A stretch of 63,864 nt of DNA, the filler included, from an uncultured Candidatus Sumerlaeota bacterium (GTDB taxonomy: Bacteria; CAYMEV01), in assembly GCA_964389675.1 (NCBI GenBank). It is 3 parts of 3 records of this genome, joined end to end, with 100 filler letters (N's around TTAATTAATTAA, not from the genome) between each part and the next. Parts side by side here need not be neighbours in the genome. Positions count along the whole stretch, not along the records: positions 1 to 30,566 come from CAYMEV010000032.1; 2 more parts are not named here. One strand, written 5' to 3'. How positions within the stretch are numbered: position 1 is the first letter of the stretch; every line of letters starts with the position of its first letter. The position numbers and the translations under genes were made by a program. The notes beneath the pieces are model-generated. The model saw nothing but the letters and a program-made list of their open reading frames with translations, was not told the DNA's origin and made no database searches. This document shows, one piece after another, positions 7,226-32,174 of this stretch.

Positions 7226-8437
7226 ATGAAAAAATCCATGTTTTTTCTGATCATTGTATTATTCATTATTCAGGCTTCATTCACTCAGACAGAGAGTGGA
7301 TTATCCAATGTTTTAGCATTGCAGGAAGGCACATTGCCTGTGGCAGAACCTGCACATTATGGTAACTGGAGTGCTGAAAAAATGCTTGATGAGAGCCCGG
7401 AATCTGGCTGGGCTTCCATTGAAGGGAAAATCAGCAATAATATATTCATATTTGAAATGATCAACAGCTCAGCTTTACAGTATTTCGAATTCGATACAGC
7501 ATCAATAGATACTGAAGGGTCAGGCGCAAAGGATATAATTGTAGAAATATCCGGCAAATCAGAAGAGTCAGGGTATGAAACCGTACTAAAAGCAGCCCTT
7601 GCACCTTCTGCAAATAATCAGAGGTTTAAGGCTGATAAAATAAAAAACGGCAGGTATATCCGGCTTACCATTGTCAATAATCACGGATCAGCCCAGTATT
7701 CAGAGCTATTTTCCTTCAGGGGATACGGCATAAAGCCTGAAATAGCAAGCCCCATTGAAAATATATCCGGCACTTATTCCACCGATTATTCAAATTTCCA
7801 TGTAAAACAGCAGGGTACTGCCCTGGTCGGGTGCTATGAATATGATGAAGGGCTTCTTGACGGCATAATTGAAGGAAGGCTGATGAAGATCACATGGGTT
7901 GAAAAGGAAGGCAGGGGTCCGGCTGTAATGGTATTTTCGCCTGATGGCAAAAGCTTCCGAGGTTACTGGTGGTATAGCGGCAATGAAAAAAATCAGCCTG
8001 ACGGAAGCTGGGACGGGGAAAAAATAAGCTCCGATGTGGGAGGATGCCCCCACTGGGCTGGATCTCTGGGAAAGGAGCTAAAAAAACAGCTGGAAAAGGA
8101 TAAGCGCGCTCGTGTTTATGGAATACTTTTCGATCTGAACTCTTCCAAAATTCGCCCTGAATCCATCCCGGTACTTGAGGATATTCTGATGATCCTTAAA
8201 AGCGAAACCGGGTGGAAGCTTACTATAGAAGGACATACTGATTCCACAGGAACACAGGATCATAATAAGACTCTCTCACTGCAGAGAGCTGAATCTGTTA
8301 TGAAATACCTTACAGGAAAAGGGATTAGCCAGGAAAGGCTTAAGATAGAAGGGCATGGTTCCAGCAGGCCTGTAGCTGATAATTCCACTGAAGCAGGGCG
8401 CTCGCAAAACCGCCGGGTTGAGCTTGTAAGGCAGTAG
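7226..8437 (+). CDS. Exported OmpA-family protein with N-terminal discoidin/F5-8-like domain
   Basis: Signal peptide; GRYIRLTIVNNHG..YSEL discoidin-like; IEGHTDSTG, LSLQRAESV, NRRVE OmpA_C motifs. Confidence 0.85.
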   Translation: MKKSMFFLIIVLFIIQASFTQTESGLSNVLALQEGTLPVAEPAHYGNWSAEKMLDESPESGWASIEGKISNNIFIFEMINSSALQYFEFDTASIDTEGSGAKDIIVEISGKSEESGYETVLKAALAPSANNQRFKADKIKNGRYIRLTIVNNHGSAQYSELFSFRGYGIKPEIASPIENISGTYSTDYSNFHVKQQGTALVGCYEYDEGLLDGIIEGRLMKITWVEKEGRGPAVMVFSPDGKSFRGYWWYSGNEKNQPDGSWDGEKISSDVGGCPHWAGSLGKELKKQLEKDKRARVYGILFDLNSSKIRPESIPVLEDILMILKSETGWKLTIEGHTDSTGTQDHNKTLSLQRAESVMKYLTGKGISQERLKIEGHGSSRPVADNSTEAGRSQNRRVELVRQ

Positions 8438-8505: not shown

Positions 8506-9141
8506 ATGGTATTCGAATATGAAGATATTATCAAAGTACTGCTTGCAATCCTTATTGGCGGACTAATAGGTGTTGAGAGGGAATACCATGATAAAGCTGC
8601 AGGGTTCAGGACAATAATCCTTATCTGTGTTGGAGCTGCATTATTCACCATTTTTTCGGCAAAACTTGCAGGCGGTAATGACCCTACCCGCATAGCAGCA
8701 AATATAGTGACCGGGATCGGCTTTCTGGGAGCCGGTGTAATTATTCGCGAGAGCGGCAGGGTATTGGGATTGACCACTGCTGCAACAATATGGCTTACTG
8801 CCTCAATAGGCATGGGAATAGGAAGCGGCCACTACATGTTCTGCGGTATTGTAACAGGAATAATGCTGATAATATTATGGCTTTTCCCAATAATTGAAAA
8901 AATATTTGTCATAAGCCATGATCAGAAAACCTATGAAATAAAGGGCATTAAAAGTGATATAAAGCTTCATGACCTGCAATCCGGGATAAAGGCATGCGGA
9001 CTGGACATAAAGCACTGCAGGATAGTTAAAGAACCAGGCAGCATTTCCTGCAGCCTGGATATTGCAGGAACAAGAAAAGGGCATGATAAACTTGCAAAAA
9101 TATTGAGCGATGATACAGAAGTAAATGAGCTAAGCTGGTAA
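8506..9141 (+). CDS. MgtC/SapB family membrane protein
   Basis: IGVERE, AGFRT, DPTRIAANIVTGIGFLGAG, GLTTAATIW; AAGGAGG RBS. Confidence 0.93.
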   Translation: MVFEYEDIIKVLLAILIGGLIGVEREYHDKAAGFRTIILICVGAALFTIFSAKLAGGNDPTRIAANIVTGIGFLGAGVIIRESGRVLGLTTAATIWLTASIGMGIGSGHYMFCGIVTGIMLIILWLFPIIEKIFVISHDQKTYEIKGIKSDIKLHDLQSGIKACGLDIKHCRIVKEPGSISCSLDIAGTRKGHDKLAKILSDDTEVNELSW

Positions 9142-9225
9142 AAACCCTCATTGTCAGATCATGCATACTAATAAAGATCAAGCAGATTTTTAATTATGAA
9201 AATACCCTCAGGCCTATTGTATTAA

Positions 9226-9657
9226 ATGCAAGCATCAACAGCAAATACAGTTAAAGCTTTTCTCTTTTATTTTGTGCAGTTTACCTGGGGATTGAGCGCA
9301 AATATCGCCGGTGGGCTATTATTCCTTATCTTTCGAATAAATGGTTCAATGAAAGAAAAGTACAGGCTCAGTATTATAACATATATAGACTTTAAATACC
9401 TGGGCGGTTTTTCTCTTGGAATATTCATTTTTATAAACAAAAATTGCAGGGGTTTGATGCTGAGCGAAACAAAAATGCATGAATACGGCCATACAATACA
9501 GTCAGCAGTATTGGGCCCGCTGTACTGGATTATCATTGCAGTCCCTTCCGTATTATGGGCACAATTTTTCCGGAATTACAGGAAAAAGAATAATATCCCT
9601 TATTCCTGGCTGTACTGCGAATCGTGGGCGGATAAATGGGGACAGCGCTTCGGCTAA
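9226..9657 (+). CDS. Small membrane protein with HExxH motif (putative zinc metallopeptidase)
   Basis: QFTWGL, GFSLG, HEYGHTIQS, ESWAD. Confidence 0.6.
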   Translation: MQASTANTVKAFLFYFVQFTWGLSANIAGGLLFLIFRINGSMKEKYRLSIITYIDFKYLGGFSLGIFIFINKNCRGLMLSETKMHEYGHTIQSAVLGPLYWIIIAVPSVLWAQFFRNYRKKNNIPYSWLYCESWADKWGQRFG

Positions 9658-9667
9658 GGCCTTCAGC

Positions 9668-10363
9668 TCACCAGCCTGAGACTGTCCTTCTTATACCGGA
9701 AGGGACACTGATCTCCCTTCTCTTTTCAATCTTCTCAAGATTAATAAGGATTTCACTGATGAATTTTCCTTTGCTCAGGCGAAACCGCTCTGAAAGACAG
9801 CTGTAGATCCTGTATGCAAATTTTATTTTGTGTTCTGTAAAAGCAGGGTCATAACAGAGGCAGAATGCGCATAATTCACCTGCATCATCCTCAATGTCAC
9901 CTTTCTTCACTGATTCAAGGTCAACTCGGTACACATTTTTATCAATATCAGATATAATAAAATTTCTAAGGTTCATATCCCCGAGTATGTTCCTGTTGCC
10001 TGAAGGGTGATCACTCAGGCCTGCATAAAGTTTTTCCAGCGAATCTGCCAGAGATGGTATATAATCATCATGATCCGGCTCATTGATCATATCAACAAGC
10101 AGCCTGCCTTCTATATGCTCCATAAATATTATTTTACTGCATGAGTATAATATGTCGGGGACAGGTGATTTTTTTGCTTTCAAAAGCTTCAGGGTCTCCA
10201 GCTCAAGGGAAAAATCATTTTCAGAATTGAACCTCTTGACAACAACAGTCTGTTTAATTCCTGCCCCTCTATTTATCACTGCTTTTTCAACAATGTTCTT
10301 TTTGCTTATAAATTTTCTAAGCACAGTATAATTTTCAATATCTAAGCATCTTTCTTCATTCAA
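9668..10363 (-). CDS. Protein-kinase-like fold small kinase/phosphotransferase (RIO/Kdo/APH-like)
   Basis: VVKRF Lys, MEHIEG hinge, LGDMNLRNF catalytic loop, VDLE Mg-binding motif. Confidence 0.7.
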   Translation of the reverse strand: MNEERCLDIENYTVLRKFISKKNIVEKAVINRGAGIKQTVVVKRFNSENDFSLELETLKLLKAKKSPVPDILYSCSKIIFMEHIEGRLLVDMINEPDHDDYIPSLADSLEKLYAGLSDHPSGNRNILGDMNLRNFIISDIDKNVYRVDLESVKKGDIEDDAGELCAFCLCYDPAFTEHKIKFAYRIYSCLSERFRLSKGKFISEILINLEKIEKRREISVPSGIRRTVSGW

Positions 10364-10371
10364 TATTTTAT

Positions 10372-11127
10372 CTATTCCCTGTTTCTTATTTTAATGTCAA
10401 TCTCTGAATTTTTTCTGTATCCATGAAGCTCGCTCACCATTCCCTCTATTAAATTACGGAGTATCTTCTGGACAAAAGGCACCATTTTGATCCTTTTTCC
10501 GTCGATTAGAAGGCTAACGGCCTCATCCTTTTCTATAATGCAGTCTTCGCGCTTTTTTTCACCTGACAGTATCATGGACACCATCTCCCTGCAGGAGTAC
10601 CCGCAAGCCCCGCAGCATTCTTCGCTCATGTTGGGCAGCAGCCTGAAAACCTTCTCTTCAATAATATCAACCATTTTAGCAATGTCTTTTGTTGAATCAA
10701 TTATCGGCCTGCCCATATAATTATCCATCTTATCCGATATAAGACCTGATATCAAAAATACGCTCCCATCCAGCTTTTCACTTATTTCTTCTATATCCTT
10801 GCATGTCATGATCTTTGGTACATTGAAATCCCTGACACCTTCAAGGATTACAAAATCATTGCTGTAGAACTTCAAGATTTCATTCATATCAAGCTTCTTT
10901 CTGTAAAGGATATCAGTCTCTGAACCGCTTCTGGCTGTTACAGGTTCTGCTCCTGCCTCATGGTGCCTGTATGTATTGGTACCCTCTTTATCCAGTGCAA
11001 AATGCTCATAGTGGATCTCCTTTACTGATCCTACTGTGTACTTCCTTCTTTTCAATTCCTTTATAATATTCTCAATCGTGGTCGTTTTTCCAGTTTTTGA
11101 GAATCCCACCACAGAAAACACTTTCAT
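10372..11127 (-). CDS. mobB: Molybdopterin-guanine dinucleotide biosynthesis protein MobB with C-terminal Fe-S domain
   Basis: VVGFSKTGKTT Walker A, VGSVKEIH, DKEGTNTYRH, CCGACGYSC...C cluster, IKMVPFVQKI tail; AGGAGG RBS. Confidence 0.85.
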   Translation of the reverse strand: MKVFSVVGFSKTGKTTTIENIIKELKRRKYTVGSVKEIHYEHFALDKEGTNTYRHHEAGAEPVTARSGSETDILYRKKLDMNEILKFYSNDFVILEGVRDFNVPKIMTCKDIEEISEKLDGSVFLISGLISDKMDNYMGRPIIDSTKDIAKMVDIIEEKVFRLLPNMSEECCGACGYSCREMVSMILSGEKKREDCIIEKDEAVSLLIDGKRIKMVPFVQKILRNLIEGMVSELHGYRKNSEIDIKIRNRE

Positions 11128-11152
11128 TTGCTAACCTCCTTATTTTCCTGAT

Positions 11153-11890
11153 TCATGCAAAAAAATAAATATACAGTGCTGATAAGGCTGAAAGAATAGA
11201 TACTGTCATAATCAGGTAATCCGCTAATCCGCATCTTAATCTTCTGAGACTGGTCCTTTGCGGGCAGGCTCTGAACCCCCTCATTTCAACAGCCATTGAC
11301 AGATCTTTTGCCTTAGAGGTGATGCTTGCAATCATCGGCATGATCAGATATGAATAGATCTGTATCTTAACCCTCAGTTTTAATCTGCTGAAATCTACTC
11401 CTCTCAGCTGCAAAGCAGTATAGCTGTCATTAACCTCCCTGCTTAATCTGCTTAGGAACCTGATTGCAACAGCTATCATAAAGACCAGTTCATAAGGCAC
11501 CCTGCACTGGCTGATGCCCTGTATAATATCCCTCGATGAGGATGTTGAGAGAATTGTTGCGGTAATAAAAATGATAGCAAGCCTTAAAATAACGGATAAA
11601 CCCGTATCAAAGCCTTTATCTGTTAAAATAGTTATATTCCCTAAGCTTATGATCACCTCTCCTCCTCTGGTGAAAATACTTTGAATAAGAATCATCAGTA
11701 TAAAGATCCAGATAAACTTCCTGAAATTCCACAAAATTGAGCAAGCATTGCTCTTAAAGGCCACCGACAGTATCACGGAGAAAATCAAAACATATGAAAG
11801 CCAAATTTTATCATCAATAATAATTGCAAGGCTTGTAATGCACATTACGAGAAAAAGCTTTGTCCGCGGATCAATTGATTTTGCGGTCAT
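11153..11890 (-). CDS. ECF transporter transmembrane T component
   Basis: IDPRTKL, ALQLRG and AVEMRGF conserved Arg motifs. Confidence 0.9.
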   Translation of the reverse strand: MTAKSIDPRTKLFLVMCITSLAIIIDDKIWLSYVLIFSVILSVAFKSNACSILWNFRKFIWIFILMILIQSIFTRGGEVIISLGNITILTDKGFDTGLSVILRLAIIFITATILSTSSSRDIIQGISQCRVPYELVFMIAVAIRFLSRLSREVNDSYTALQLRGVDFSRLKLRVKIQIYSYLIMPMIASITSKAKDLSMAVEMRGFRACPQRTSLRRLRCGLADYLIMTVSILSALSALYIYFFA

Positions 11891-12533
11891 TTATAATATT
11901 TCCTTCATTAATATCTATGATTCTGCATGCCAGATCCATTATAAATTCAGGGTCATGGCTGATAATTAAAGAGCCAGTGCCTTTATCCAGCTGGTCTTTC
12001 AGAATACCTCTAAGCAGGTACTTACCTTCATTATCAAGTGATGTAGCAGGTTCATCCAGTATCAGGAACCCGGGATCATTTATAAGTATGCCTGCCAGCG
12101 CAAGCCTCTGCTTTTCCCCCAGACTGAGATGATGAGGGAAGCTGTCCCTCAGGCGGTCAAGGCCAAAACAGGCCAGCATTTCATCAACCCTTGCCTTGAT
12201 CATCCCTGTTTGAAGCCCCTTTATCCTGAGGACAAAAGATGCTTCATCCTCAACTGTGGCTGCAAAGATCTGCCTTTCAGGCTCCTGAAACAAATATCCT
12301 ATTTCCTGCCCTATTTGCCCGAGAGTTAAATCCCCTGTGTCGCATCCTTTTATCATAACCCTCCCGCCTGCCGGCTTCAGGATGCCCATCATCAGCTTGC
12401 TGACCGTGGTCTTCCCGCTTCCATTACCCCCTTTGAGTATAGTCAGGCCCTTATTCTCAATACTTATGCTGAGATCTTTTATGACAAAATCATGAAAATA
12501 TCTGAAACTGACATTTTCCAGATTAATCAGCAA
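11871..12533 (-). CDS. ECF transporter ATPase (A' component)
   Basis: GGNGSGKTT, FQEPERQIF, LSLGEKQR, ILDEP, ISHD. Confidence 0.9.
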   Translation of the reverse strand: MLINLENVSFRYFHDFVIKDLSISIENKGLTILKGGNGSGKTTVSKLMMGILKPAGGRVMIKGCDTGDLTLGQIGQEIGYLFQEPERQIFAATVEDEASFVLRIKGLQTGMIKARVDEMLACFGLDRLRDSFPHHLSLGEKQRLALAGILINDPGFLILDEPATSLDNEGKYLLRGILKDQLDKGTGSLIISHDPEFIMDLACRIIDINEGNIINDRKIN

Positions 12534-13240
12534 TGAGAAGCACCCTCCCTTCCTTCTTCAGGATGATCATAGTCATGAAGGCATCCTTCCCGCAGTGTTT
12601 TTATTCTGTCTGCCATATCATAATAATCCCTGTTATGCTCTACCATTATAATTGTTTTATTTTCTTCTCTAAGCTCCTGCAGAACAGATCCAACCATGAT
12701 CCTGCCCTTAGCATCAAGCTGGGAAGTGATCTCATCAAATATGAGGATGTCCGGGTCAATGCTCAGGACTGATGCCAGGGCTACAAGATGTTTCTCGCCA
12801 CCGGAAAGCTCCCTGGGGTGCCTGTACCTTAATTTTTCAATGCCAAGCCTGTTAAGGACGCTGTCTATTCTGTTCCTGATCTCATTCTGAGGGACAGCAA
12901 AATTTTCCGGCCCAAAGGCAATCTCATCTTCAACTGTGGGTAAAAAAAGCTGAATATCAGGGTTCTGGAACACCATACCAATAAAACTTGATAGTTCGGA
13001 TATTCTGCCATCTTTAACCGATCTGCCCATTATTTTCACTTCACCTTCGAAAATACCCCCCTTTATCAGGGGGATTATTCCGCAGATACAGTAGCAGAGG
13101 GTAGTCTTCCCGCTGCCATTTGCGCCGGTAAATATTAAGATCTCTCCCTTATTTATATCCAGGCTTATGCCTTTCAGGTGCTTTTCGCTTTTGTCACTGT
13201 ATTTGAAAGAGAGATCCCTGATCTGCACTGGGCAAATCAT
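12527..13240 (-). CDS. ECF transporter ATPase (A component)
   Basis: GANGSGKTT, FQNPDIQLF, EIAFGPEN, LSGGEK, VEHN. Confidence 0.9.
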   Translation of the reverse strand: MICPVQIRDLSFKYSDKSEKHLKGISLDINKGEILIFTGANGSGKTTLCYCICGIIPLIKGGIFEGEVKIMGRSVKDGRISELSSFIGMVFQNPDIQLFLPTVEDEIAFGPENFAVPQNEIRNRIDSVLNRLGIEKLRYRHPRELSGGEKHLVALASVLSIDPDILIFDEITSQLDAKGRIMVGSVLQELREENKTIIMVEHNRDYYDMADRIKTLREGCLHDYDHPEEGREGASHC

Positions 13241-13746
13241 CTTATGTCCAGTTCCATAAGAAATTTATTCCATCTCTGCCCGAATGAATCCTTCCTGATG
13301 ATAAGCTGATAGGGCCCTGAGCCTCCTTCTTTTTTTGGCAGCAGGGCTTTTTGGTTCATTTCATACACAATATAGACATTATCATCCTCAGAAACCTCCT
13401 TACGGCTGAGAACGACAGTATACCCGTCAACCGCTTTTGTAACCACCTGATCGATCTTCTCGATATCGATATCATTGGCCTTAAGAAGGTCCTTCAGCTG
13501 GACACCCTTATATATATTTACTCTTTCCCCGCTGCTGCTTCTTCTTAATGTAGCTTCAAATTCATATTCCTTCAGGCTTTTTATCTCACGCAGGCCTATC
13601 AATAGTCTTTTTCCTCCAAAATTCAGGCAGATAATCGAGGACTCCTGGTTTGTGATCCTGTCCTTTCTGTTCCCTGAATTCAAAAATGCAAATAATGCTA
13701 TTATAATAAGAAGGGCTGTTATAATTGACCAGATGATCCTATTCAT
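13237..13746 (-). CDS. Membrane-anchored molybdopterin-binding (sulfite oxidase/Oxidored_molyb-like) domain protein
   Basis: N-terminal TM; YKGVQLKDLL, AVDGYT, IVYEMNQKAL, GPYQLII, RWNKFL. Confidence 0.65.
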   Translation of the reverse strand: MNRIIWSIITALLIIIALFAFLNSGNRKDRITNQESSIICLNFGGKRLLIGLREIKSLKEYEFEATLRRSSSGERVNIYKGVQLKDLLKANDIDIEKIDQVVTKAVDGYTVVLSRKEVSEDDNVYIVYEMNQKALLPKKEGGSGPYQLIIRKDSFGQRWNKFLMELDIR

Positions 13747-15262
13747 TATCCCCCCCCTGGTAAAAAAGCCAGTATGGCGTGAACATATCTTTTGCTATCA
13801 AACTGCCGTGTGTTCCACCTTCATCTTTGGGGTGCATTCCATGATCGGCATATATCAGGACCTTCCCGCTCCATCCAGACAGGATATTCTTTGTAAATCC
13901 ATCTATTTTCTTCAGGGCCTGCATTGTATTTTCATCATAATCACCATATTTATGTCCTGTTTTATCAGCATCCTTAAAATGAACAAAAATCAAATCATGA
14001 TCCTTTTTTATCTCCTGCATTGCTTTTTCAGCCTTTTCATCATCCGTGCTTTCATCATTATTAAGGTCCAGGCAGTATATAGGCTCGATCTCAAGTTTTA
14101 CAGCCGCAACAGGCCCTATTATAGCCTGGCATGATTTCTCATTCTGCATGCAGAAACCAAATATTGTAGGCACCTTGAGAAGATCTGTCTTCCTGTCATG
14201 TATTCCGTTTACAGATGGAGGCTCACCGGTAAGAGACGCTGCGAGATTTACAGGGGTTATAGGGGGATAGGCTGACATTGACCTTTCAGGTTCTGGAAGG
14301 CTGGCAAGAAAGGGTATATATCCTTTTTGCCCTGCATGCAGATACTGGTGAAAGCCAAAGCCGTCTATAAGTATTATTAATAGCCTTTCTCCGTTTAGCA
14401 TAGCTGATCTGGCATCTTTATATACATCCGTTATACTTTTCTCCGGAGGATCCATTATAATACCCCTGCATGAAGGAATGAGCAGAGTTCCATCGCCTGC
14501 ATAGCCAATACTGTTCTCCTTCAGGATAAAAAATCCATTTTCATCAAAGATCTCTGATTCACCATTTTCTCCAAAAACTGCAAGCTGTTCTTTCCCCGGG
14601 TTATCCAGATATTTATAGATATCAATTCTTTTATGGCAATAAAATGAGACAGCTTCTATCTTACCATCATTGTAGTTAAAGGCAGATACACCCCTGGCTA
14701 AGGGGTATATGCAATAACCTTCCCTGTAGATCTGACCGGGTGAGATATATTCTGTTTTACCCGCAGGGTCAGTTATGCAGAATGCATTATCTGCATGCAG
14801 TTTATCAGCATCGGTAATGATAATTATTTTTTCTATATCCTTAATATTACTGCTTGCAGGGTGTTTTGGATTTAAAGCATTCCATCCGGTTTCACCCGGG
14901 ACCAGATAGCATTCATCCAGGTTCCTGCCTGAGATAACAGCACTGACGCCATCATGGGAGATATACATTATGTGGTATGAATCCGACCTGGGCTCAGCCT
15001 TTTTAATAATATATGAAAGAGGGTAGCCCTTTATTTTGTTTTGCTTGTATATTACATCCCCTGCATTCAGGAGCATCTCTGGATCAAGCCGATAAACCGG
15101 GTTTTCAACATCCCCGGTGACCTCTAATCTGAAAGACACCCTTTCACTTATATCATCTGTATTACCGATGCACCCCTGAAGGAATAGAAAGGATATAATA
15201 AGGGAAAAGACTGCAGGGATTTTATATACATATCGAGATCTGTTAAGTTTTTTAATAATCAT
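13739..15262 (-). CDS. Lipoprotein with N-terminal Oxidored_molyb-like domain and C-terminal alkaline phosphatase/NPP-superfamily domain
   Basis: LQGC lipobox; LEVTGDVENP..GYPLSYII..SHDG; IILIDGFG, PPITPVN, DADKTGH, ADHGM, THG. Start placed at ATG 15262 (the track uses 15307). Confidence 0.75.
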   Translation of the reverse strand: MIIKKLNRSRYVYKIPAVFSLIISFLFLQGCIGNTDDISERVSFRLEVTGDVENPVYRLDPEMLLNAGDVIYKQNKIKGYPLSYIIKKAEPRSDSYHIMYISHDGVSAVISGRNLDECYLVPGETGWNALNPKHPASSNIKDIEKIIIITDADKLHADNAFCITDPAGKTEYISPGQIYREGYCIYPLARGVSAFNYNDGKIEAVSFYCHKRIDIYKYLDNPGKEQLAVFGENGESEIFDENGFFILKENSIGYAGDGTLLIPSCRGIIMDPPEKSITDVYKDARSAMLNGERLLIILIDGFGFHQYLHAGQKGYIPFLASLPEPERSMSAYPPITPVNLAASLTGEPPSVNGIHDRKTDLLKVPTIFGFCMQNEKSCQAIIGPVAAVKLEIEPIYCLDLNNDESTDDEKAEKAMQEIKKDHDLIFVHFKDADKTGHKYGDYDENTMQALKKIDGFTKNILSGWSGKVLIYADHGMHPKDEGGTHGSLIAKDMFTPYWLFYQGGDNE

Positions 15263-15293
15263 TAATACCCTTCCAAGTTTTATATTTTGAATA

Positions 15294-15836
15294 TTAATTA
15301 TTCTCAAACCTTTTTGCTATCTTATATGCAATTATGCCTCCCATGCCGCCAGAAAGGGATGCAACCGCAAGGCTTAGTACCAGGGGGACTGCCGGCAGGC
15401 GGAAAAAGGCAATATTCACAAGGAGTGAACCGCTGAAATTAGCTGCGACCCCGGCTGAAAAACAGCAGGCAAGACCGCATGCCCTTATGCCTGAGATGAA
15501 AAATACCAGGTCTACAGCTATTCCCGGAACCATATATGTAATTATGCTTAAGAAGCCATGAGTTCCGTAAAAACCCAAAACCATGACAACAATCCCCTGA
15601 ACAAGTGCAATCAATGTTGCACTGCCCATCTTTCTGACAAGCACAGCCCCGATCACTATCCACATCATATAGAAACCGCCTGCCAGCACACCACCCGGTA
15701 TGAACAACGGTGCAGTTATGATATGTGCAAAGGCCACTGTGACAGGCTTGAAAACAATACCGAGACATGCGGTAAGGGACATCAGGACTAGGTCATAAGC
15801 GGTAAACTTTTCAAAAAATGACCTCCGGTCCGGCAT
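15294..15836 (-). CDS. ECF transporter substrate-specific S component
   Basis: 180 aa, about 6 TM, DLVLMS...LVRKMGSATL pattern of S components; in an operon with A, A' and T. Confidence 0.8.
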   Translation of the reverse strand: MPDRRSFFEKFTAYDLVLMSLTACLGIVFKPVTVAFAHIITAPLFIPGGVLAGGFYMMWIVIGAVLVRKMGSATLIALVQGIVVMVLGFYGTHGFLSIITYMVPGIAVDLVFFISGIRACGLACCFSAGVAANFSGSLLVNIAFFRLPAVPLVLSLAVASLSGGMGGIIAYKIAKRFENN

Positions 15837-15849
15837 TAATTTCTCCCTT

Positions 15850-16983
15850 TTATCCTGCAGCTTCTACTGAAATAATATTGGCTGTAACTACAGGAGCATT
15901 AATTGCTCCAAAAATAATTGAAATTCCTTCTCCTGCTCTCTGAAATATAACGGCTTTTTCATAATCCTCTGCTTTCAGCTCCGTGGATTTTCCATCCAGC
16001 GATTTTATTAAATAAATTTTCGCATTCCTTAAATGGTATCTTTCTCCGATCCTGCGAAGCAAAATGCCTTTATGCCCTGCAAACTCTTCTGAATCAAAGA
16101 TCTTCGCCCCCTGATAAAAGGAAAAGTACCCTGTATCGCCTGAGGAAAACCAGACAATATTTTTTACATGCATGCCCAATTTGATATCAGGCCCCTTGAA
16201 TGAGGGCGCATCTTCGCCCTCAGTGATCAGGAAGCCCTTAATGAAAGTTGTGAGATCTTCATTCTTTTCCAGACCATCTGATGCTGAAAAAAATACAGTT
16301 TCTGAAAATTGGGCATCATCGAGGATATCTGATGCTTTTACGGCCTTTTGCCCGCTCTGCTGGTAATCTGACTTATCCAGAAGAGAAAGCTTTGTCTCCA
16401 GGAATACCAGTTTGCTTATCTGAGCATCCCCTGGATCATCTTCATAGTATTTAATGCTTATTTTTACGATTCCCCTGGCCCAGTACATTTCTTCCTCACC
16501 CGGGATAAATACCCTTATCGGTTTTGATTTCTCAAAAAGAGGCTTATTATCCATCTCATAGGCAAGTATGATCCTTTTTTTTCTTATGACAGGTTCCGGG
16601 ATCTCGACCATATAACCATCTTTTGCATTCAATTTTATGCTTGAGATATCCTCATAATCCTTTCCAAGGAATCTGACAAGATCATCAAAAAGTACACCCT
16701 TGACCGTGTACTCCCTTTCAACATTCCCTTTATCATCCCGTGTGATTATCTCTTCATTTACAGCTTCAAGGGCCATTATATCCTTAATGCTTACTTCTTC
16801 CTCACCATCCTTGTCAGAAATCTTTATAAGCCCATTATCAGGTCCGTTCAGCATTTTGCCGTTTTTATTCACAGTTTCTGCATCATCCCTATAATATCTT
16901 TCTTTTCTGCAGCAAATAAGAAACATTATGGCTATTATAAACAAAATAGCCATTAAAATAGTGTTTTTAATGTATTTAATCAT
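15850..16983 (-). CDS. Lipoprotein with Oxidored_molyb-like domain(s)
   Basis: FLICC lipobox; YTVKGVLFDDLV, AKDGYM, ILAYEMDNKPL, PIRVFIPG, YWARGIVKI; further degenerate copies (ASDGL, SLDG). Confidence 0.65.
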   Translation of the reverse strand: MIKYIKNTILMAILFIIAIMFLICCRKERYYRDDAETVNKNGKMLNGPDNGLIKISDKDGEEEVSIKDIMALEAVNEEIITRDDKGNVEREYTVKGVLFDDLVRFLGKDYEDISSIKLNAKDGYMVEIPEPVIRKKRIILAYEMDNKPLFEKSKPIRVFIPGEEEMYWARGIVKISIKYYEDDPGDAQISKLVFLETKLSLLDKSDYQQSGQKAVKASDILDDAQFSETVFFSASDGLEKNEDLTTFIKGFLITEGEDAPSFKGPDIKLGMHVKNIVWFSSGDTGYFSFYQGAKIFDSEEFAGHKGILLRRIGERYHLRNAKIYLIKSLDGKSTELKAEDYEKAVIFQRAGEGISIIFGAINAPVVTANIISVEAAG

Positions 16984-17276
16984 AAATATGCAACCTTTAT
17001 CTTATTTATTTCTATTAAACGAATAAAATTTAATTTGTTAAATAAATACCTGAATATCATATGTCTTTATATATTTCCCTTTTTTGATCAATTCAATAAA
17101 TTTATTATAGTAAGGAATTATGAACTATACAACGATTTCTGTTTGAATCAGCTTTGATATTGCCATCATATGCCAAATAGCATTAAAAATTGGAATAACA
17201 GCCTATCAGCTAATTCCATCTTTTGCAGAACAGGCATGGAAGAATAATAAATCTTTAAAAAAATTACTTTTTTCTA

Positions 17277-17329
17277 TTGACATTTATCAAAGAACTATTA
17301 TATATATAGTATAGTGTGATACACAGTAT
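17277..17329 (+). promoter_or_regulatory. Promoter and probable PadR operator
   Basis: TTGACA at 17277 with a TATA-rich -10 region; imperfect inverted repeat ATAGTGTG-ata-CACAGTAT at 17311-17329. Confidence 0.45.
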
Positions 17330-17377
17330 TATATATTATACATATATGTGTATTATTATAATAATCAGGAGGCACGG

Positions 17378-17707
17378 ATGGATATTAAAGAATTTGGGCT
17401 GGAAACAGAAATGAACCGCGGATTTCTTCAGATACTTGCCCTGCTGGTACTCGAATATTCAATGTATGGTTATCAGATGATAAAATCGATTAAAGAACTG
17501 GGATACACAGTTGAAGAAAACACGCTCTACCCCCTGCTTCGCAGGCTGGAAAAGAATGGCTGGATAAAAAGCGACTGGAAAATAGAAAAGGAAAGGCCAA
17601 AAAAATACTATATTATCACCTCAGAGGGCAGACTGGCGAGAGAAACCCTGCTTGAAATCTGGAGGAAACAGAAAAAGATAATAGAAAAACTTTTAAAGGA
17701 GATATAA
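17378..17707 (+). CDS. PadR family transcriptional regulator
   Basis: MYGYQM, ENTLYPLLRRLEKNG, RPKKYYIITSEG; AGGAGG RBS favours ATG 17378. Confidence 0.92.
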   Translation: MDIKEFGLETEMNRGFLQILALLVLEYSMYGYQMIKSIKELGYTVEENTLYPLLRRLEKNGWIKSDWKIEKERPKKYYIITSEGRLARETLLEIWRKQKKIIEKLLKEI

Positions 17708-17708
17708 A

Positions 17709-18635
17709 ATGAACAAAGCTCTTCAAGACTATCTGGAAGAAATAAGGCATTACCTGGTCACAAAGGATAATTCTGATGAGATACTCAAAGAAATAGAGTC
17801 TCATATAATGGACAAACTGCAAGAAGATGGAAATGAGGAAAATGAAGAGGCAATTAATCGGGCAATCCAGGATTATGGCTCTCCAGGAAAGGTTGCAGAA
17901 AAGTACCTTGAAGGAAATCACATAATCTACCCAAATTACCGTAATTTTCTCTTTTTGTACACCTGGCTGCTGTTTATATTTCACTATGGTTTAAACATAG
18001 TATCCTATGTTTTTGGCATAACATTCAGGATCCTCCCCTTTGGGCTTTCAATAAGCGTTTCAAGCTGGACGGATCTTATTATACAAATTCCTATGACATG
18101 GGTATATGATTTCGGGCTTATTGCTCTCATTCTTTATTTTATAACGCAAAGCCCCGGGGATACAAGGCTGGTCTGGCCAAAATTCTTTAAACAATGCTTC
18201 AGCCTGACTGAAGTAAAAAACAAAAAATTATGGCTGGGATGGCTGCTCCTTTTTCTCTTTGTAATCCTTCTGATTGCATATATCAGACAGGGTTCGATAT
18301 TTTTCATGAACCCGGGAGAGATTATTAAGCCTGATCCTGCCGAACGGCCTGAAATTTATAATGTGCTTTCCATAATTGTGCTTTTTATACTTGGTTTAGA
18401 GAGCATGACCATATTCCTTAAAAACTGGCTTAAATCTCTCTGGGTAAATTTTGCCAACAGCATCTCCTACCTTATATCCTGCATAGTACTTTTGAATATT
18501 CCAAAGGCAAAGATCATTCCTGATCCGGAATTTCATGTCCTGATCACTTTTCTGGCCTGGATTATCGGGATCATAATGATGTTTGTGGTATATGACATCA
18601 TCTGCGTCCTAAAAACAATACTGACCAGGAAATAA
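17709..18635 (+). CDS. Membrane protein with N-terminal HAAS-like signalling domain (PadR partner)
   Basis: YLEEIRHYL...EIESHI...YGSPGKVAEKY followed by about 6 TM; 1 nt after padR. Confidence 0.75.
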   Translation: MNKALQDYLEEIRHYLVTKDNSDEILKEIESHIMDKLQEDGNEENEEAINRAIQDYGSPGKVAEKYLEGNHIIYPNYRNFLFLYTWLLFIFHYGLNIVSYVFGITFRILPFGLSISVSSWTDLIIQIPMTWVYDFGLIALILYFITQSPGDTRLVWPKFFKQCFSLTEVKNKKLWLGWLLLFLFVILLIAYIRQGSIFFMNPGEIIKPDPAERPEIYNVLSIIVLFILGLESMTIFLKNWLKSLWVNFANSISYLISCIVLLNIPKAKIIPDPEFHVLITFLAWIIGIIMMFVVYDIICVLKTILTRK

Positions 18636-30668: not shown

Positions 30669-32174
30669 AAGGCAAGAAGATTGATAGTGGACGATCTAAG
30701 GGCAGGCAACCTTATAGTCTCAGAAAAGAACATAACACATCCGGTCGGCACTCATGAACGCTGCGGTACCGATGTTGAATTCCTTACAATACCGCAGTGG
30801 TTCATAAGGGTACTGGACTCAAAGGAACTTTTAATAAAATACTGCAACCAGGTGGAATGGTACCCTGATTATATGAAGTACAGGTTTATTAACTGGGTTG
30901 AAAACCTTGAGTGGGACTGGTGCATCTCGAGGCAAAGGTTCTTCGGCGTCCCGTTTCCGCTCTGGTACTGCAAAAATTGCGGGAGTGTCATACTTGCAGA
31001 TGAGGACAGGCTGCCGGTAGACCCGCTGGCATCAGACCCTGAAGGCTGCTGTCCGGACTGCGGCAGCAGTGAATTCATTCCTGAACGGGATGTCATGGAC
31101 ACCTGGGCAACATCTTCAATGACCCCAATGATCGTTTCTCAATGGCTCGAGAAAGAAGACCTGAGCTCAAAGGTATTCCCTCTGACCCTTCGCCCTCAGG
31201 CCCATGAAATTATAAGGACCTGGGCCTTCTATTCGATGGTCAAATCTGTATTCCATTTTGATTCTATTCCATGGCAGAAAGCCATGATAAGCGGTTTTGT
31301 AGTTGCAGAGAAGAAGACAAAGGAAAAAATAAGCAAAAGCAAGGGAAATGCTCCAAGTTCGCCTGAAGGGCTCCTGGATATCCATGGTGCGGATACATTA
31401 AGGTACTGGTCATGTTCAGCAAAGTTAGGGTCTGATTATACTTTCAATGAACAGGACCTTAAATCTGCAAGGAAGCTTTTGACAAAGATCTGGAATGCAT
31501 CGAAATTCTGCATAGGGCATCTGCTGGAATATAAAAGGGCCGATATATCTGCAGTTTCCTATGAAACCATTGATAAATGGATCTTCACCAGGCTTTCCAG
31601 TACAGTAAAAAAAGCTGATGAATATCTCAGGCAGTTTGAATTCGGAATTGCGAAAAATGAGATAGAAAGATTCTTCTGGAATTCCTTCTGCGACAATTAT
31701 ATTGAAATAGTAAAAGACAGGCTTTATCATCCTGAAATACACGGATCCATGCAGAAGATATCCGGCCAGAATGCCCTGTACCACACCCTGCTCTCCCTGC
31801 TTAAGCTTTTTGCGCCCTTTCTGCCGCATATAACTGAAGAGATATACCAGATATACTTCAGAAAGCAGGAGGGCAATATATCCCTGCATCTGATGGAATT
31901 TCCCTCTCCGCAGGCTTTCTCCCCTGATGAGGATGCTTTTATTTTAGGGGAATCCGCAGTCCATGCCATATCACTGATCCGAAGATTCAGGACAGAAAAC
32001 AAAATGAGCATAAAAGACGGCATTGAAAGCATAGATCTGGCCACAAGGCATAATATATCTCGCCCTGATCTTATAAGGGATATCAGGTATTCTACAAATA
32101 CATCGAATATTAATCTTGACACAGTCCCGGAGCAGGAAGAACTTGCTGTAATTAAAGATGTGAAATTAAAGTAA
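30669..32174 (+). CDS. valS: Valyl-tRNA synthetase, archaeal-type, 5' truncated
   Basis: HERCGT, QWFI, DWCISRQRFFGVPFP, DVMDTWATSS, RPQAHEIIRTWAF, KISKSKGN. Confidence 0.9.
   Translation, partial: KARRLIVDDLRAGNLIVSEKNITHPVGTHERCGTDVEFLTIPQWFIRVLDSKELLIKYCNQVEWYPDYMKYRFINWVENLEWDWCISRQRFFGVPFPLWYCKNCGSVILADEDRLPVDPLASDPEGCCPDCGSSEFIPERDVMDTWATSSMTPMIVSQWLEKEDLSSKVFPLTLRPQAHEIIRTWAFYSMVKSVFHFDSIPWQKAMISGFVVAEKKTKEKISKSKGNAPSSPEGLLDIHGADTLRYWSCSAKLGSDYTFNEQDLKSARKLLTKIWNASKFCIGHLLEYKRADISAVSYETIDKWIFTRLSSTVKKADEYLRQFEFGIAKNEIERFFWNSFCDNYIEIVKDRLYHPEIHGSMQKISGQNALYHTLLSLLKLFAPFLPHITEEIYQIYFRKQEGNISLHLMEFPSPQAFSPDEDAFILGESAVHAISLIRRFRTENKMSIKDGIESIDLATRHNISRPDLIRDIRYSTNTSNINLDTVPEQEELAVIKDVKLK

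Follow-up and report, generated by a model that had tools for sequence, protein, structure and literature searches.

A nine-gene operon on the minus strand, at positions 9668-16983 of a 63,864-nucleotide (nt) stretch of DNA from an uncultured Candidatus Sumerlaeota bacterium (GCA_964389675.1; the whole stretch, which joins three parts of this genome, is called the window), probably encodes a dedicated, group I energy-coupling factor (ECF) importer for scavenging the pyranopterin with which tungsten and molybdenum enzymes work. The cargo would most likely be the tungsten-loaded form of this cofactor or a close derivative, drawn from anoxic surroundings. Surface capture and ECF-mediated import of a pterin cofactor had been put forward in a first-pass annotation, and comparative evidence from gene conservation, riboswitch control, protein fold, association with aldehyde ferredoxin oxidoreductase (AOR) and loss of the biosynthetic pathway supports that idea.

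In the relay that we envisage, with genes numbered g1 to g9 in the order of transcription, the cysteine-less sulfite oxidase (SUOX)/PruR-type domains of g1, g3 and g4 would bind the pterin moiety at the cell surface, and the domain of g3 that resembles nucleotide pyrophosphatase/phosphodiesterase (NPP) would cleave a phosphodiester or phosphate, for example that of a dinucleotide form. The substrate-specific (S) component g2, driven by the transmembrane (T) component g7 and the ATPases g5 and g6 (A and A′), would move the pterin across the membrane. The kinase g9 would put the phosphate back, and g8, a MobB protein fused to an iron-sulfur (FeS) domain, would take the cofactor in the cytoplasm and pass it to apo-enzymes such as AOR. 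Several lines of evidence converge on pterin import: an isolate genome devoid of the pathway, the concordant absence of three biosynthesis genes, the lineage pattern of that absence, an OFF-type riboswitch, the fold of the exported domains, an S component of the vitamin type, and the pairing of a phosphodiesterase with a kinase. Taken together they argue against uptake of metal alone and against outward trafficking.

Conservation, tungsten enzymes and loss of cofactor biosynthesis

At E<=0.001 the S component has 119 homologues; its relatives in species genomes number 425, and the best 80 of these 425 constitute the related loci to which we refer throughout. The order g1-g2-g3-g4-A-A′-T-MobB-kinase recurs in most of the 80, an arrangement well beyond what chance would produce. 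Among the loci that could be evaluated, g4 is present in 64 of 71 and is the most conserved accessory protein of the cluster; A is found in 65 of 69, A′ in 57 of 62, T in 57 of 61, MobB-FeS in 51 of 58, the kinase in 35 of 51, g3 in 49 of 72 and g1 in 45 of 73. Conservation of the S-component neighbourhood, including its linkage to mobB and the kinase, was one of the checks proposed for the original idea, and across the related loci that neighbourhood is conserved; each of the proposed checks that could be run computationally favoured the idea. A MoeA gene lies directly downstream of the cluster in four loci.

In the S-component tree the window copy falls within a clade with 99/99 support, in which 11 of the 15 rows come from genomes without the pathway. 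The same clade holds metagenome-assembled genomes (MAGs) labelled Sumerlaeota and Thermotogaceae (L022, L052 and L014); most relatives of the operon belong to Bacillota, and these mixed labels could reflect horizontal spread or mis-binning. Variant loci are also found. In those of the Pelotomaculum/Desulfotomaculaceae type the S gene stands alone behind tandem riboswitches, and in the relatives L057 and L074 it occurs without A or T genes. Next to the S gene in the loci of the Pelotomaculum/Desulfotomaculaceae type, S-layer-anchored proteins of 1237-1334 amino acids (aa) replace the lipoproteins and combine Shr-like Hb-interacting domains (PF07550, E 4e-83 and 2e-51), Fn3-associated domains and an Oxidored_molyb domain, which is predicted to be an architecture of surface capture and would fit capture from proteins or debris.

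The genomes behind 70 of these 80 loci were profiled; the window's own organism is not among them. AOR, recognised by AFOR_N, is encoded in 65 of these 70 carriers, and MoaA, MoaC and MoeA score over their cut-offs in 46, 48 and 50, respectively. MoaA and MoaC are missing together from 21 carriers and are discordant in only 3. MoeA is missing as well from 17 of the 21, the remaining four keeping MoeA only. Sixteen of the 17 carriers that lack MoaA, MoaC and MoeA encode 2-8 AOR genes; the 17th is an isolate genome with three enzymes of the xanthine dehydrogenase type and two PF00384 enzymes, one of whose genes contains an in-frame TGA, presumably as in selenocysteine formate dehydrogenases. The profile that the first-pass annotation had predicted for users of such a system, with moaA and moaC absent and AOR present, is displayed by 20 of the 70 carriers.

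The absence of MoeA from 17 carriers suggests that the metal enters with the pterin, and the four carriers with MoeA only, in some of which the gene lies directly downstream of the cluster, suggest that a metal-free or metal-exchanged pterin is also used. ModA was found in none of the five pathway-less carriers tested and was absent from 9 of 20 carriers tested. Five pathway-less genomes were also found to contain no protein of MogA/MoaB size, PF00994 occurring there only in open reading frames (ORFs) of 395-431 aa. Since organisms with neither pterin synthesis nor metal insertion cannot use tungstate, these genomes argue against tungstate as the cargo.

A separate class sample comprised 399 genomes of the class of genome G001, drawn with min_completeness set to 90. 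AOR is encoded by all 20 genomes with an orthologue of the S component, compared with 33 of the 379 without one (Fisher p 8e-20, uncorrected).

Further components of the cofactor pathway were scored in these genomes. MoaE was set aside as a pathway marker because it does not discriminate, scoring over its cut-off in only 15 of the 70 carriers. A MoaE-like profile built from three carrier genomes had no match in five carriers, four of them with MoaA and MoaC, and MoaE (PF02391) was found in 1 of 10 class-sample genomes that are S-negative, AOR-positive and MoaC-positive. Within this set (G001-G070 and the ten class-sample genomes), MoaE was not detected even in closed genomes with MoaA, MoaC and MoeA, so that these Clostridia have a molybdopterin synthase that has either diverged strongly or is not an orthologue. 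MobA (TIGR02665) was over its cut-off in none of five pathway-less genomes and in only 1 of 14 controls, three genomes giving full-length matches below threshold, and TupC (NF041774, E<=1e-60) had no match in carriers or in controls, which makes this search silent on tungstate transporters.

Exported domains and import machinery of the operon

The nine co-oriented genes, all on the minus strand, occupy the positions first assigned to them and are closely packed. From the ORF coordinates, g1/g2 are separated by 13 nt, g7/g8 by 25 nt and g8/g9 by 8 nt, and overlaps of 14, 8, 4, 7 and 20 nt join g2/g3, g3/g4, g4/g5, g5/g6 and g6/g7. Comparison with Pfam and NCBIfam, alignments and structural models bore out the gene identities that had been proposed (S, A, A′, T, MobB-FeS, NPP fusion, kinase and SUOX-fold proteins). 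Inspection of the exported proteins places a cysteine within the signal peptides of g1 and g3 and a membrane helix at the start of g4; no twin-arginine motif is visible in g1, g3 or g4.

The protein encoded by g4 (13237-13746; 169 aa) consists of an N-terminal membrane anchor and one cysteine-less SUOX/PruR-type domain. Its AlphaFold (AF2) model, based on 46 orthologues, has a pLDDT of 89.2, and its top Foldseek match is PruR (7kom, E 4.1e-7, TMt 0.74; also 7kp2), followed by the molybdenum cofactor (Moco) domains of sulfite oxidases, SorA and YedY. A sequence profile of g4 likewise matches 7kom in the PDB (E 9.4e-4), and the Pfam match to PF00174 (30.3 bits) is partial, covering only profile positions 69-162 of 169. 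PruR is a periplasmic pterin-binding protein with the sulfite oxidase fold and without the molybdenum-binding cysteine, and in the A. tumefaciens protein the pterin ring lies between Y104 and W160 and is bonded by N102 (PMC11194511). Across 46 sequences (alignment A3) the g4 family has no conserved cysteine and no molybdenum-ligand cysteine, and the hairpin loop on which SUOX enzymes bear that ligand carries a nearly invariant S70. D107 and W159 are invariant and Y109 is nearly so. In the alignment to 7kom, D107 and Y109 fall on its LNDY, D107 sitting where 7kom has N; the equivalence of W159 with PruR W160 rests on alignment to SorA, not on side-chain superposition. The exported SUOX-fold proteins had been named as candidate pterin capturers, and a proven pterin binder is among the best structural matches of g4 and of the first domain of g1.

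Related domains are found in g1 and g3. The g1 product (15850-16983; 377 aa) is an exported probable lipoprotein with a PF00174 Oxidored_molyb match of 25.6 bits (cut-off 24) and an AF2 model with a pLDDT of 88.3. Of the several sulfite oxidase-fold domains first attributed to it, one is complete: a cysteine-less SUOX/PruR-type domain at residues 45-184 (VIA-align over 48-184) with Z 16.8 to 7kom and 3hbg, a root-mean-square deviation of 2.3-2.7 over 122-134 aligned residues, and a relationship between g1 and g4 of 99.3% in hhalign. Residues 185-285 and 286-377 are two shorter relatives of this domain (hhalign 95.4% and 92.7%), an assignment made by hhalign alone over a region, 185-377, that was barely covered in the structural search. 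In g3, the fusion of a SUOX-type domain to an NPP domain was borne out for the NPP part, and the N-terminal domain (about residues 50-175) is a short SUOX relative only (hhalign 90.5% to g4 and 90.6% to the third domain of g1). Residues 176-300 of g3 show no relation to SUOX-type domains (hhalign 0.2-1.5%) and had no match among those tested. On these models and alignments a pterin-binding fold, its derivatives counted in, would be displayed five times on the cell surface by proteins of this operon.

The NPP-type domain, of the alkaline phosphatase superfamily, spans about residues 300-500 of g3, a lipoprotein at 13739-15307 that is 522 aa long as listed. Its likely start is the ATG at 15262, 15 codons in, which leaves a gap of 31 nt after g2 and a normal lipoprotein signal ending in LQGC. 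The domain matches PF01663 (58.3 bits, residues 309-494), and its profile has the Xanthomonas NPP 2gsn as best PDB match (1.5e-7), ENPPs being matched as well. Among the residues invariant in 41 sequences are D315, T351, D448, D488, H489 and H492, which we take to be NPP metal-ligand and nucleophile positions. Its profile matches and invariant residues place the domain in the NPP/alkaline phosphatase superfamily. The putative counterpart inside the cell is g9 (9668-10363; 231 aa), a small protein with a protein-kinase-like fold. K43, E54, D129, N134 and D148 are invariant in an alignment of 32 homologues and make up a complete kinase catalytic set. Its profile matches Bud32 (4.4e-7), RIO2 and APH, and scores against family models stay under their thresholds (APH, 19.5 bits versus 23.2; Bud32 NF011460, 36.7 bits versus 199); with a full catalytic set and no family threshold passed, g9 is best described as a kinase-fold enzyme of no named family. 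Among related loci, g3 and g9 occur together in 27, g3 alone in 5, g9 alone in 7 and neither in 10 (odds ratio 7.7, Fisher p 0.003, phylogeny not corrected for), a co-occurrence that fits trimming outside the cell and re-phosphorylation inside it.

The g8 gene (10372-11127; 251 aa) encodes a MobB P-loop protein fused to a cysteine-rich FeS domain, with matches to PF03205 (82.6 bits, cut-off 26.6), TIGR00176 (89.4 bits, cut-off 76.2) and PF04060 (25.4 bits). Its MobB domain thus scores above the family thresholds, and matches to the fusion-specific models NF011062-65 are all below their cut-offs (best 168.1 versus 418). G8, G13, T15, C171, C172, C175, C179 and C196 are invariant in 34 sequences and K14 is nearly so. 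MobB had been assigned the task of passing the cofactor on for dinucleotide maturation. AORs use the pterin without a nucleotide, and because AORs are the enzymes with which the operon is associated, this role is doubtful; MobB-FeS more likely acts as a chaperone or acceptor than in the synthesis of molybdopterin guanine dinucleotide.

The transporter is encoded by adjacent genes, mostly overlapping, for S, T and two A components, the hallmark of a group I system, to which we assign it on gene content. The ATPases g5 (12527-13240) and g6 (11871-12533) match PF00005 ABC_tran (98.5 and 93.4 bits), and both have ECF ATPases as their best NCBIfam matches; TIGR04520 ECF_ATPase_1, the best of g5, scores 212.7 and 159.1 bits for g5 and g6, below the equivalog cut-off of 315. 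The T component g7 (11153-11890) matches PF02361 CbiQ (91.3 bits). The S component g2 (15294-15836; 180 aa) belongs to PF09819 (57.9 bits, cut-off 25.2), a family that carries the Pfam name 'ABC-type cobalt transport system, permease component'. PF09819 includes YkoE, an S component that carries an organic substrate, and metal-carrying ECF S components are of the CbiM/NikM type. A YkoEDC transporter of thiamine or its hydroxymethylpyrimidine (HMP) precursor was considered for the operon and rejected: no thiamine pyrophosphate (TPP) riboswitch was found in the 13 related loci scanned or upstream of the operon in the window, g2 has no NCBIfam match, and the S-family profile retrieved no PDB sequence at E<=1, from a library that was not checked for a YkoE entry. 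A predicted complex of g2 with g4 reached a score of 0.43 (best of three controls, 0.00), its runs agreeing in at least 66% of contacts and its partner pLDDT being at least 73. This passes a mark that 58 of 80 solved complexes also attain, as do 2 of 110 mismatched pairs, scores of 0.60 or less accounting for only 7 of those 80 complexes and for both passing mismatches, and the prediction hints weakly at an interaction.

Riboswitch control in related operons

A scan of 13 related loci against the whole of Rfam placed RF01055 (the Moco RNA motif) upstream, in the orientation of the genes, in 11. Apart from tRNAs no other family matched in these 13 loci, and no TPP, tetrahydrofolate (THF) or preQ1 riboswitch was among the matches. 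A model of our own (R1), built from these RF01055 matches and applied to the 80 loci, detects a same-strand aptamer ahead of the S gene in 60; of the other 20, nine have less than 1.6 kb of upstream sequence and eight have at least 9 kb and no aptamer. Aligned to the Rfam model, L014 and L002 lack the P3 hairpin, and, when alignment A2 is read by eye, each of its 11 sequences is shortened at the P3 position. Regulski et al. link a P3-less class of this riboswitch to the tungsten cofactor (Tuco or Wco) (PMC2408646).

A hairpin followed by a T-run lies within 130 nt downstream of 41 of the 60 aptamers, constituting a terminator (OFF) platform, and many of the terminator 5′ arms read CTCCTTT, complementary to the 3′ P1 strand of the aptamer. 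Such complementarity is the design of an OFF switch and indicates that the cluster genes serve supply, so that in the relatives they are predicted to be made when the cofactor is short.

Several features of the riboswitch regulon extend beyond this arrangement. Tandem pairs of Moco/Tuco aptamers precede the S operon in L030 (3435-3713), L057 (8353-8647), L028 (6951-7235), L071 (7983-8301) and L074 (6096-6370). At L079:17477-19419 a second riboswitch copy stands directly before the AOR gene downstream of the cluster, so that there an enzyme that uses the cofactor is under this class of RNA as well. About six riboswitch-controlled operons (L009:6231-9203, L021:6144-8093, L023:4539-5294 and relatives) carry, between g1 and the S gene, genes for a FecCD-type permease, Peripla_BP_2, an ATPase and a DUF364/DUF4213 'heavy-metal chelation' protein, which look like a second uptake module in the Moco riboswitch regulon. 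FMN_bind proteins occur in 24 related loci, the flavin transferase ApbE in 6 and a Fer4_5+FMN_bind membrane protein in one. Such genes are the first after the riboswitch in many relatives (L041:7922-8464, L057:8739-9818, L080:8274-9455), which hints at an extracytosolic redox step, perhaps one that keeps the pterin reduced. The window operon has no FMN_bind or ApbE gene.

Weighing the cargo, and relation to known systems

A number of observations weigh against pterin import as proposed here. Most carriers keep biosynthesis genes, as the count for MoaA illustrates, so the system is not confined to auxotrophs. In the class sample, MoaC is present in 19 of the 20 S-positive genomes, and the pathway-less carriers must lie mostly in other lineages that are represented by MAGs only. 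All pathway-less genomes but one are MAGs of unknown completeness and, since moaA, moaC and moeA are often found on a single contig, the absence of that contig from an assembly could pass for loss of the pathway; the chance of at least 17 such losses among 70 genomes is 5e-8 if 5% of clusters are lost, 4e-4 at 10% and 0.03 at 15%. L016, the sister of the window in the S-component tree, has MoaC, MoeA and a partial MoaA, and the S components of the pathway-less MAGs L019 and L020 are nearly identical to that of L039, a MAG with the genes. Among evaluable loci, 16 of 51 lack the kinase and 23 of 72 lack g3. The pocket of PruR is described as too short for the whole of Moco (PMC11194511). Metal transporters and enzymes that use the cofactor are under the Moco riboswitch too, and with targets so varied it does not by itself name the cargo. 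Lastly, the AT-rich leader and promoter region of the window operon (16984-17347) lacks a Moco/Tuco riboswitch, unlike most relatives: RF01055 gave no match there at the gathering threshold or at E<=10, model R1 finds nothing in the window, and with filters off the best aptamer match in the window scores 11.9 bits and lies inside an ORF at 18019-18171, compared with 50-110 bits in relatives. This copy must therefore be regulated differently, and the divergently transcribed PadR-family regulator next to it (17348-17707, plus strand; 119 aa; PF03551, 67.7 bits) could be what replaces the riboswitch.

Some of the evidence would be equally at home with other cargoes. Were the ECF system to import metal, whether as tungstate, as molybdate or in a thio or chelated form, oxyanion binding would fall to the surface domains and to the alkaline phosphatase-type site, and MobB-FeS would be a metallochaperone. 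Sites of the alkaline phosphatase superfamily bind tungstate and molybdate as phosphate analogues, an association with AOR is equally expected of a tungsten supplier, and both the lack of ModA in 9 of 20 carriers and the FecCD-type and DUF364/DUF4213 genes of some six related operons could be counted in favour of metal uptake, as could the control of molybdate and tungstate transporters by Moco/Tuco riboswitches (PMC2408646). We nevertheless consider metal import unlikely, since metal alone would be useless to the 17 carriers that encode molybdenum or tungsten enzymes without MoaA, MoaC and MoeA, and oxyanion uptake leaves no role for a kinase whose catalytic set is complete and which occurs together with a phosphodiesterase. 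Membership of the S component in PF09819, which includes the organic-substrate carrier YkoE, rather than in the CbiM/NikM type, and the match of the exported domains to a proven pterin binder point the same way. Another organic cargo is also conceivable, such as folate, biopterin, a queuosine-type precursor or thiamine/HMP, with the link to Moco being regulatory or incidental. PF09819 includes the thiamine/HMP S component, some homologues are so named, and the window copy has no Moco riboswitch; PruR itself is reported to bind non-Moco pterins (PMC11194511). The riboswitch scan, with no TPP, THF or preQ1 element in 13 loci, the linkage of MobB-FeS in 51 of 58 loci with MoeA directly downstream in four, and the 20/20 association with AOR in the class sample make such a cargo quite unlikely. 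Since Moco synthesis starts from GTP and does not draw on free pterins, the shortage of cofactor to which the OFF switch responds would not be eased by a generic pterin.

It is also conceivable that the system works outward, supplying cofactor to extracytosolic SUOX-fold enzymes that would form a surface redox system with flavinylated FMN_bind proteins. The FMN_bind, ApbE and Fer4_5+FMN_bind genes of the related loci accord with this, and the signals of the exported proteins are of the Sec type, not twin-arginine, which implies that these proteins cross the membrane without cofactor. A Listeria ECF system that traffics flavin for extracytosolic use has been reported (PMC9973259). The 46 g4 sequences have no conserved or molybdenum-ligand cysteine, the OFF-type riboswitch silences the genes under ample cofactor, whereas a consumer would need the reverse, and pathway-less carriers have nothing to export. 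With FMN_bind and ApbE genes lacking from the window operon itself, and with molybdenum, ECF and MobB having no occurrence in the flavinylation surveys searched, we regard outward supply as very unlikely.

Import of the pterin cofactor, if correct, would have wider consequences. It is possible, though we would stop short of calling it probable, that strict anaerobes scavenge the finished tungsten or molybdenum pterin cofactor by a riboswitch-controlled relay, and that whole lineages have dropped its biosynthesis and live as cross-fed auxotrophs. To our knowledge, Moco and Wco are generally treated as made by every user for itself and as too labile to share. We found no description of an ECF or other uptake system for Moco or the tungsten cofactor in the literature covered, which left out supplementary tables that may list these genes; the flavinylation papers, a pterin-signalling review and a trace-element ECF paper, which concerns cobalt, describe no such system. 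The operon would represent the first bacterial uptake route for Moco/Wco. Peng et al. (2018) noted hundreds of genomes with 'orphan' molybdoenzymes, an incomplete pathway and often no metal transporter, and left them unexplained (PMC6147048). A dedicated importer would explain such genomes and give a testable answer to the puzzle that they pose. A cofactor would then count among the metabolites exchanged within anoxic communities, for instance those of sediments and digesters; the MobB-FeS fusion and a large family of cysteine-less SUOX-fold proteins would acquire a function, and tungsten enzymes could be loaded in hosts unable to make the cofactor.

Outside the operon, a scan of positions 9100-17500 for promoter and terminator consensus sequences found nothing that marks its ends. 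The PadR-family gene is followed by one for a 308-aa HAAS-domain protein, the two together spanning 17348-18635 on the plus strand and diverging from the operon. On the other side, an OmpA-family protein with an F5/8-type-C-like N-terminal part (7226-8437, plus strand) suggests a diderm host. A 497-aa ORF elsewhere in the window (30681-32174, plus strand) matches class I tRNA synthetases only from profile position 185 on, plus an anticodon-binding domain, and may be a truncated or split synthetase gene.

Among characterised systems, the oxyanion transporters ModABC, TupABC and WtpABC resemble the operon family in belonging to the Moco riboswitch regulon and serving the same enzymes (PMC2408646), and differ in that they carry metal only, by way of periplasmic binding proteins. 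Dedicated ECF importers such as YkoEDC (thiamine/HMP), BioMNY and CbiMNQO provide the closest match for the transporter, with a PF09819-type S component, a CbiQ-type T component and two ECF-type ATPases encoded together. Relatives of the operon are under a cofactor riboswitch, as are many vitamin ECF systems (PMC3766115), although that riboswitch is Moco/Tuco and not TPP, B12 or biotin-related, and the operon adds three exported SUOX-fold proteins, an ecto-phosphodiesterase, a kinase and MobB-FeS.

For the exported proteins the nearest precedent is PruR (7kom, 7kp2, 7kos, 7kou and 7rkb). Like PruR, g4 and the first domain of g1 have an exported SUOX fold without a molybdenum-binding cysteine, and the g4 family conserves an aromatic Tyr/Trp pair that may correspond to the one in PruR, with Asp in the place of the pterin-bonding Asn. 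The partner of PruR is a DcpA-type diguanylate cyclase (GGDEF/EAL), whereas here it would be an ECF transporter: no DcpA-type GGDEF/EAL domain was found in the window ORFs scanned, and the neighbours of g4 are ECF components, MobB and a kinase. The operon family also differs in its lipid or membrane anchoring, in the multiplication of the domains and their fusion to NPP, and in occurring mainly in Bacillota rather than Proteobacteria. The sulfite oxidase/YedY (MsrP) family shares the fold of the Moco-binding domain, with PF00174 scoring just above threshold. Without a molybdenum-ligand cysteine on the β-hairpin, a dimerisation or haem domain or a visible twin-arginine signal, and with a partial profile match, g1 and g4 are ruled out as enzymes of that family. 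In overall design the operon family may be likened to the Isd/Shr-type haem relays of Gram-positive bacteria, in which wall or S-layer receptors, lipoproteins and a membrane transporter are encoded in one cofactor-repressed operon, and relatives of the operon carry Shr-like Hb-interacting domains. The analogy would extend to organisation rather than to parts, since the operon family uses the SUOX fold in place of NEAT domains, an ECF in place of a type II ABC importer, and a proposed pterin cargo in place of haem.

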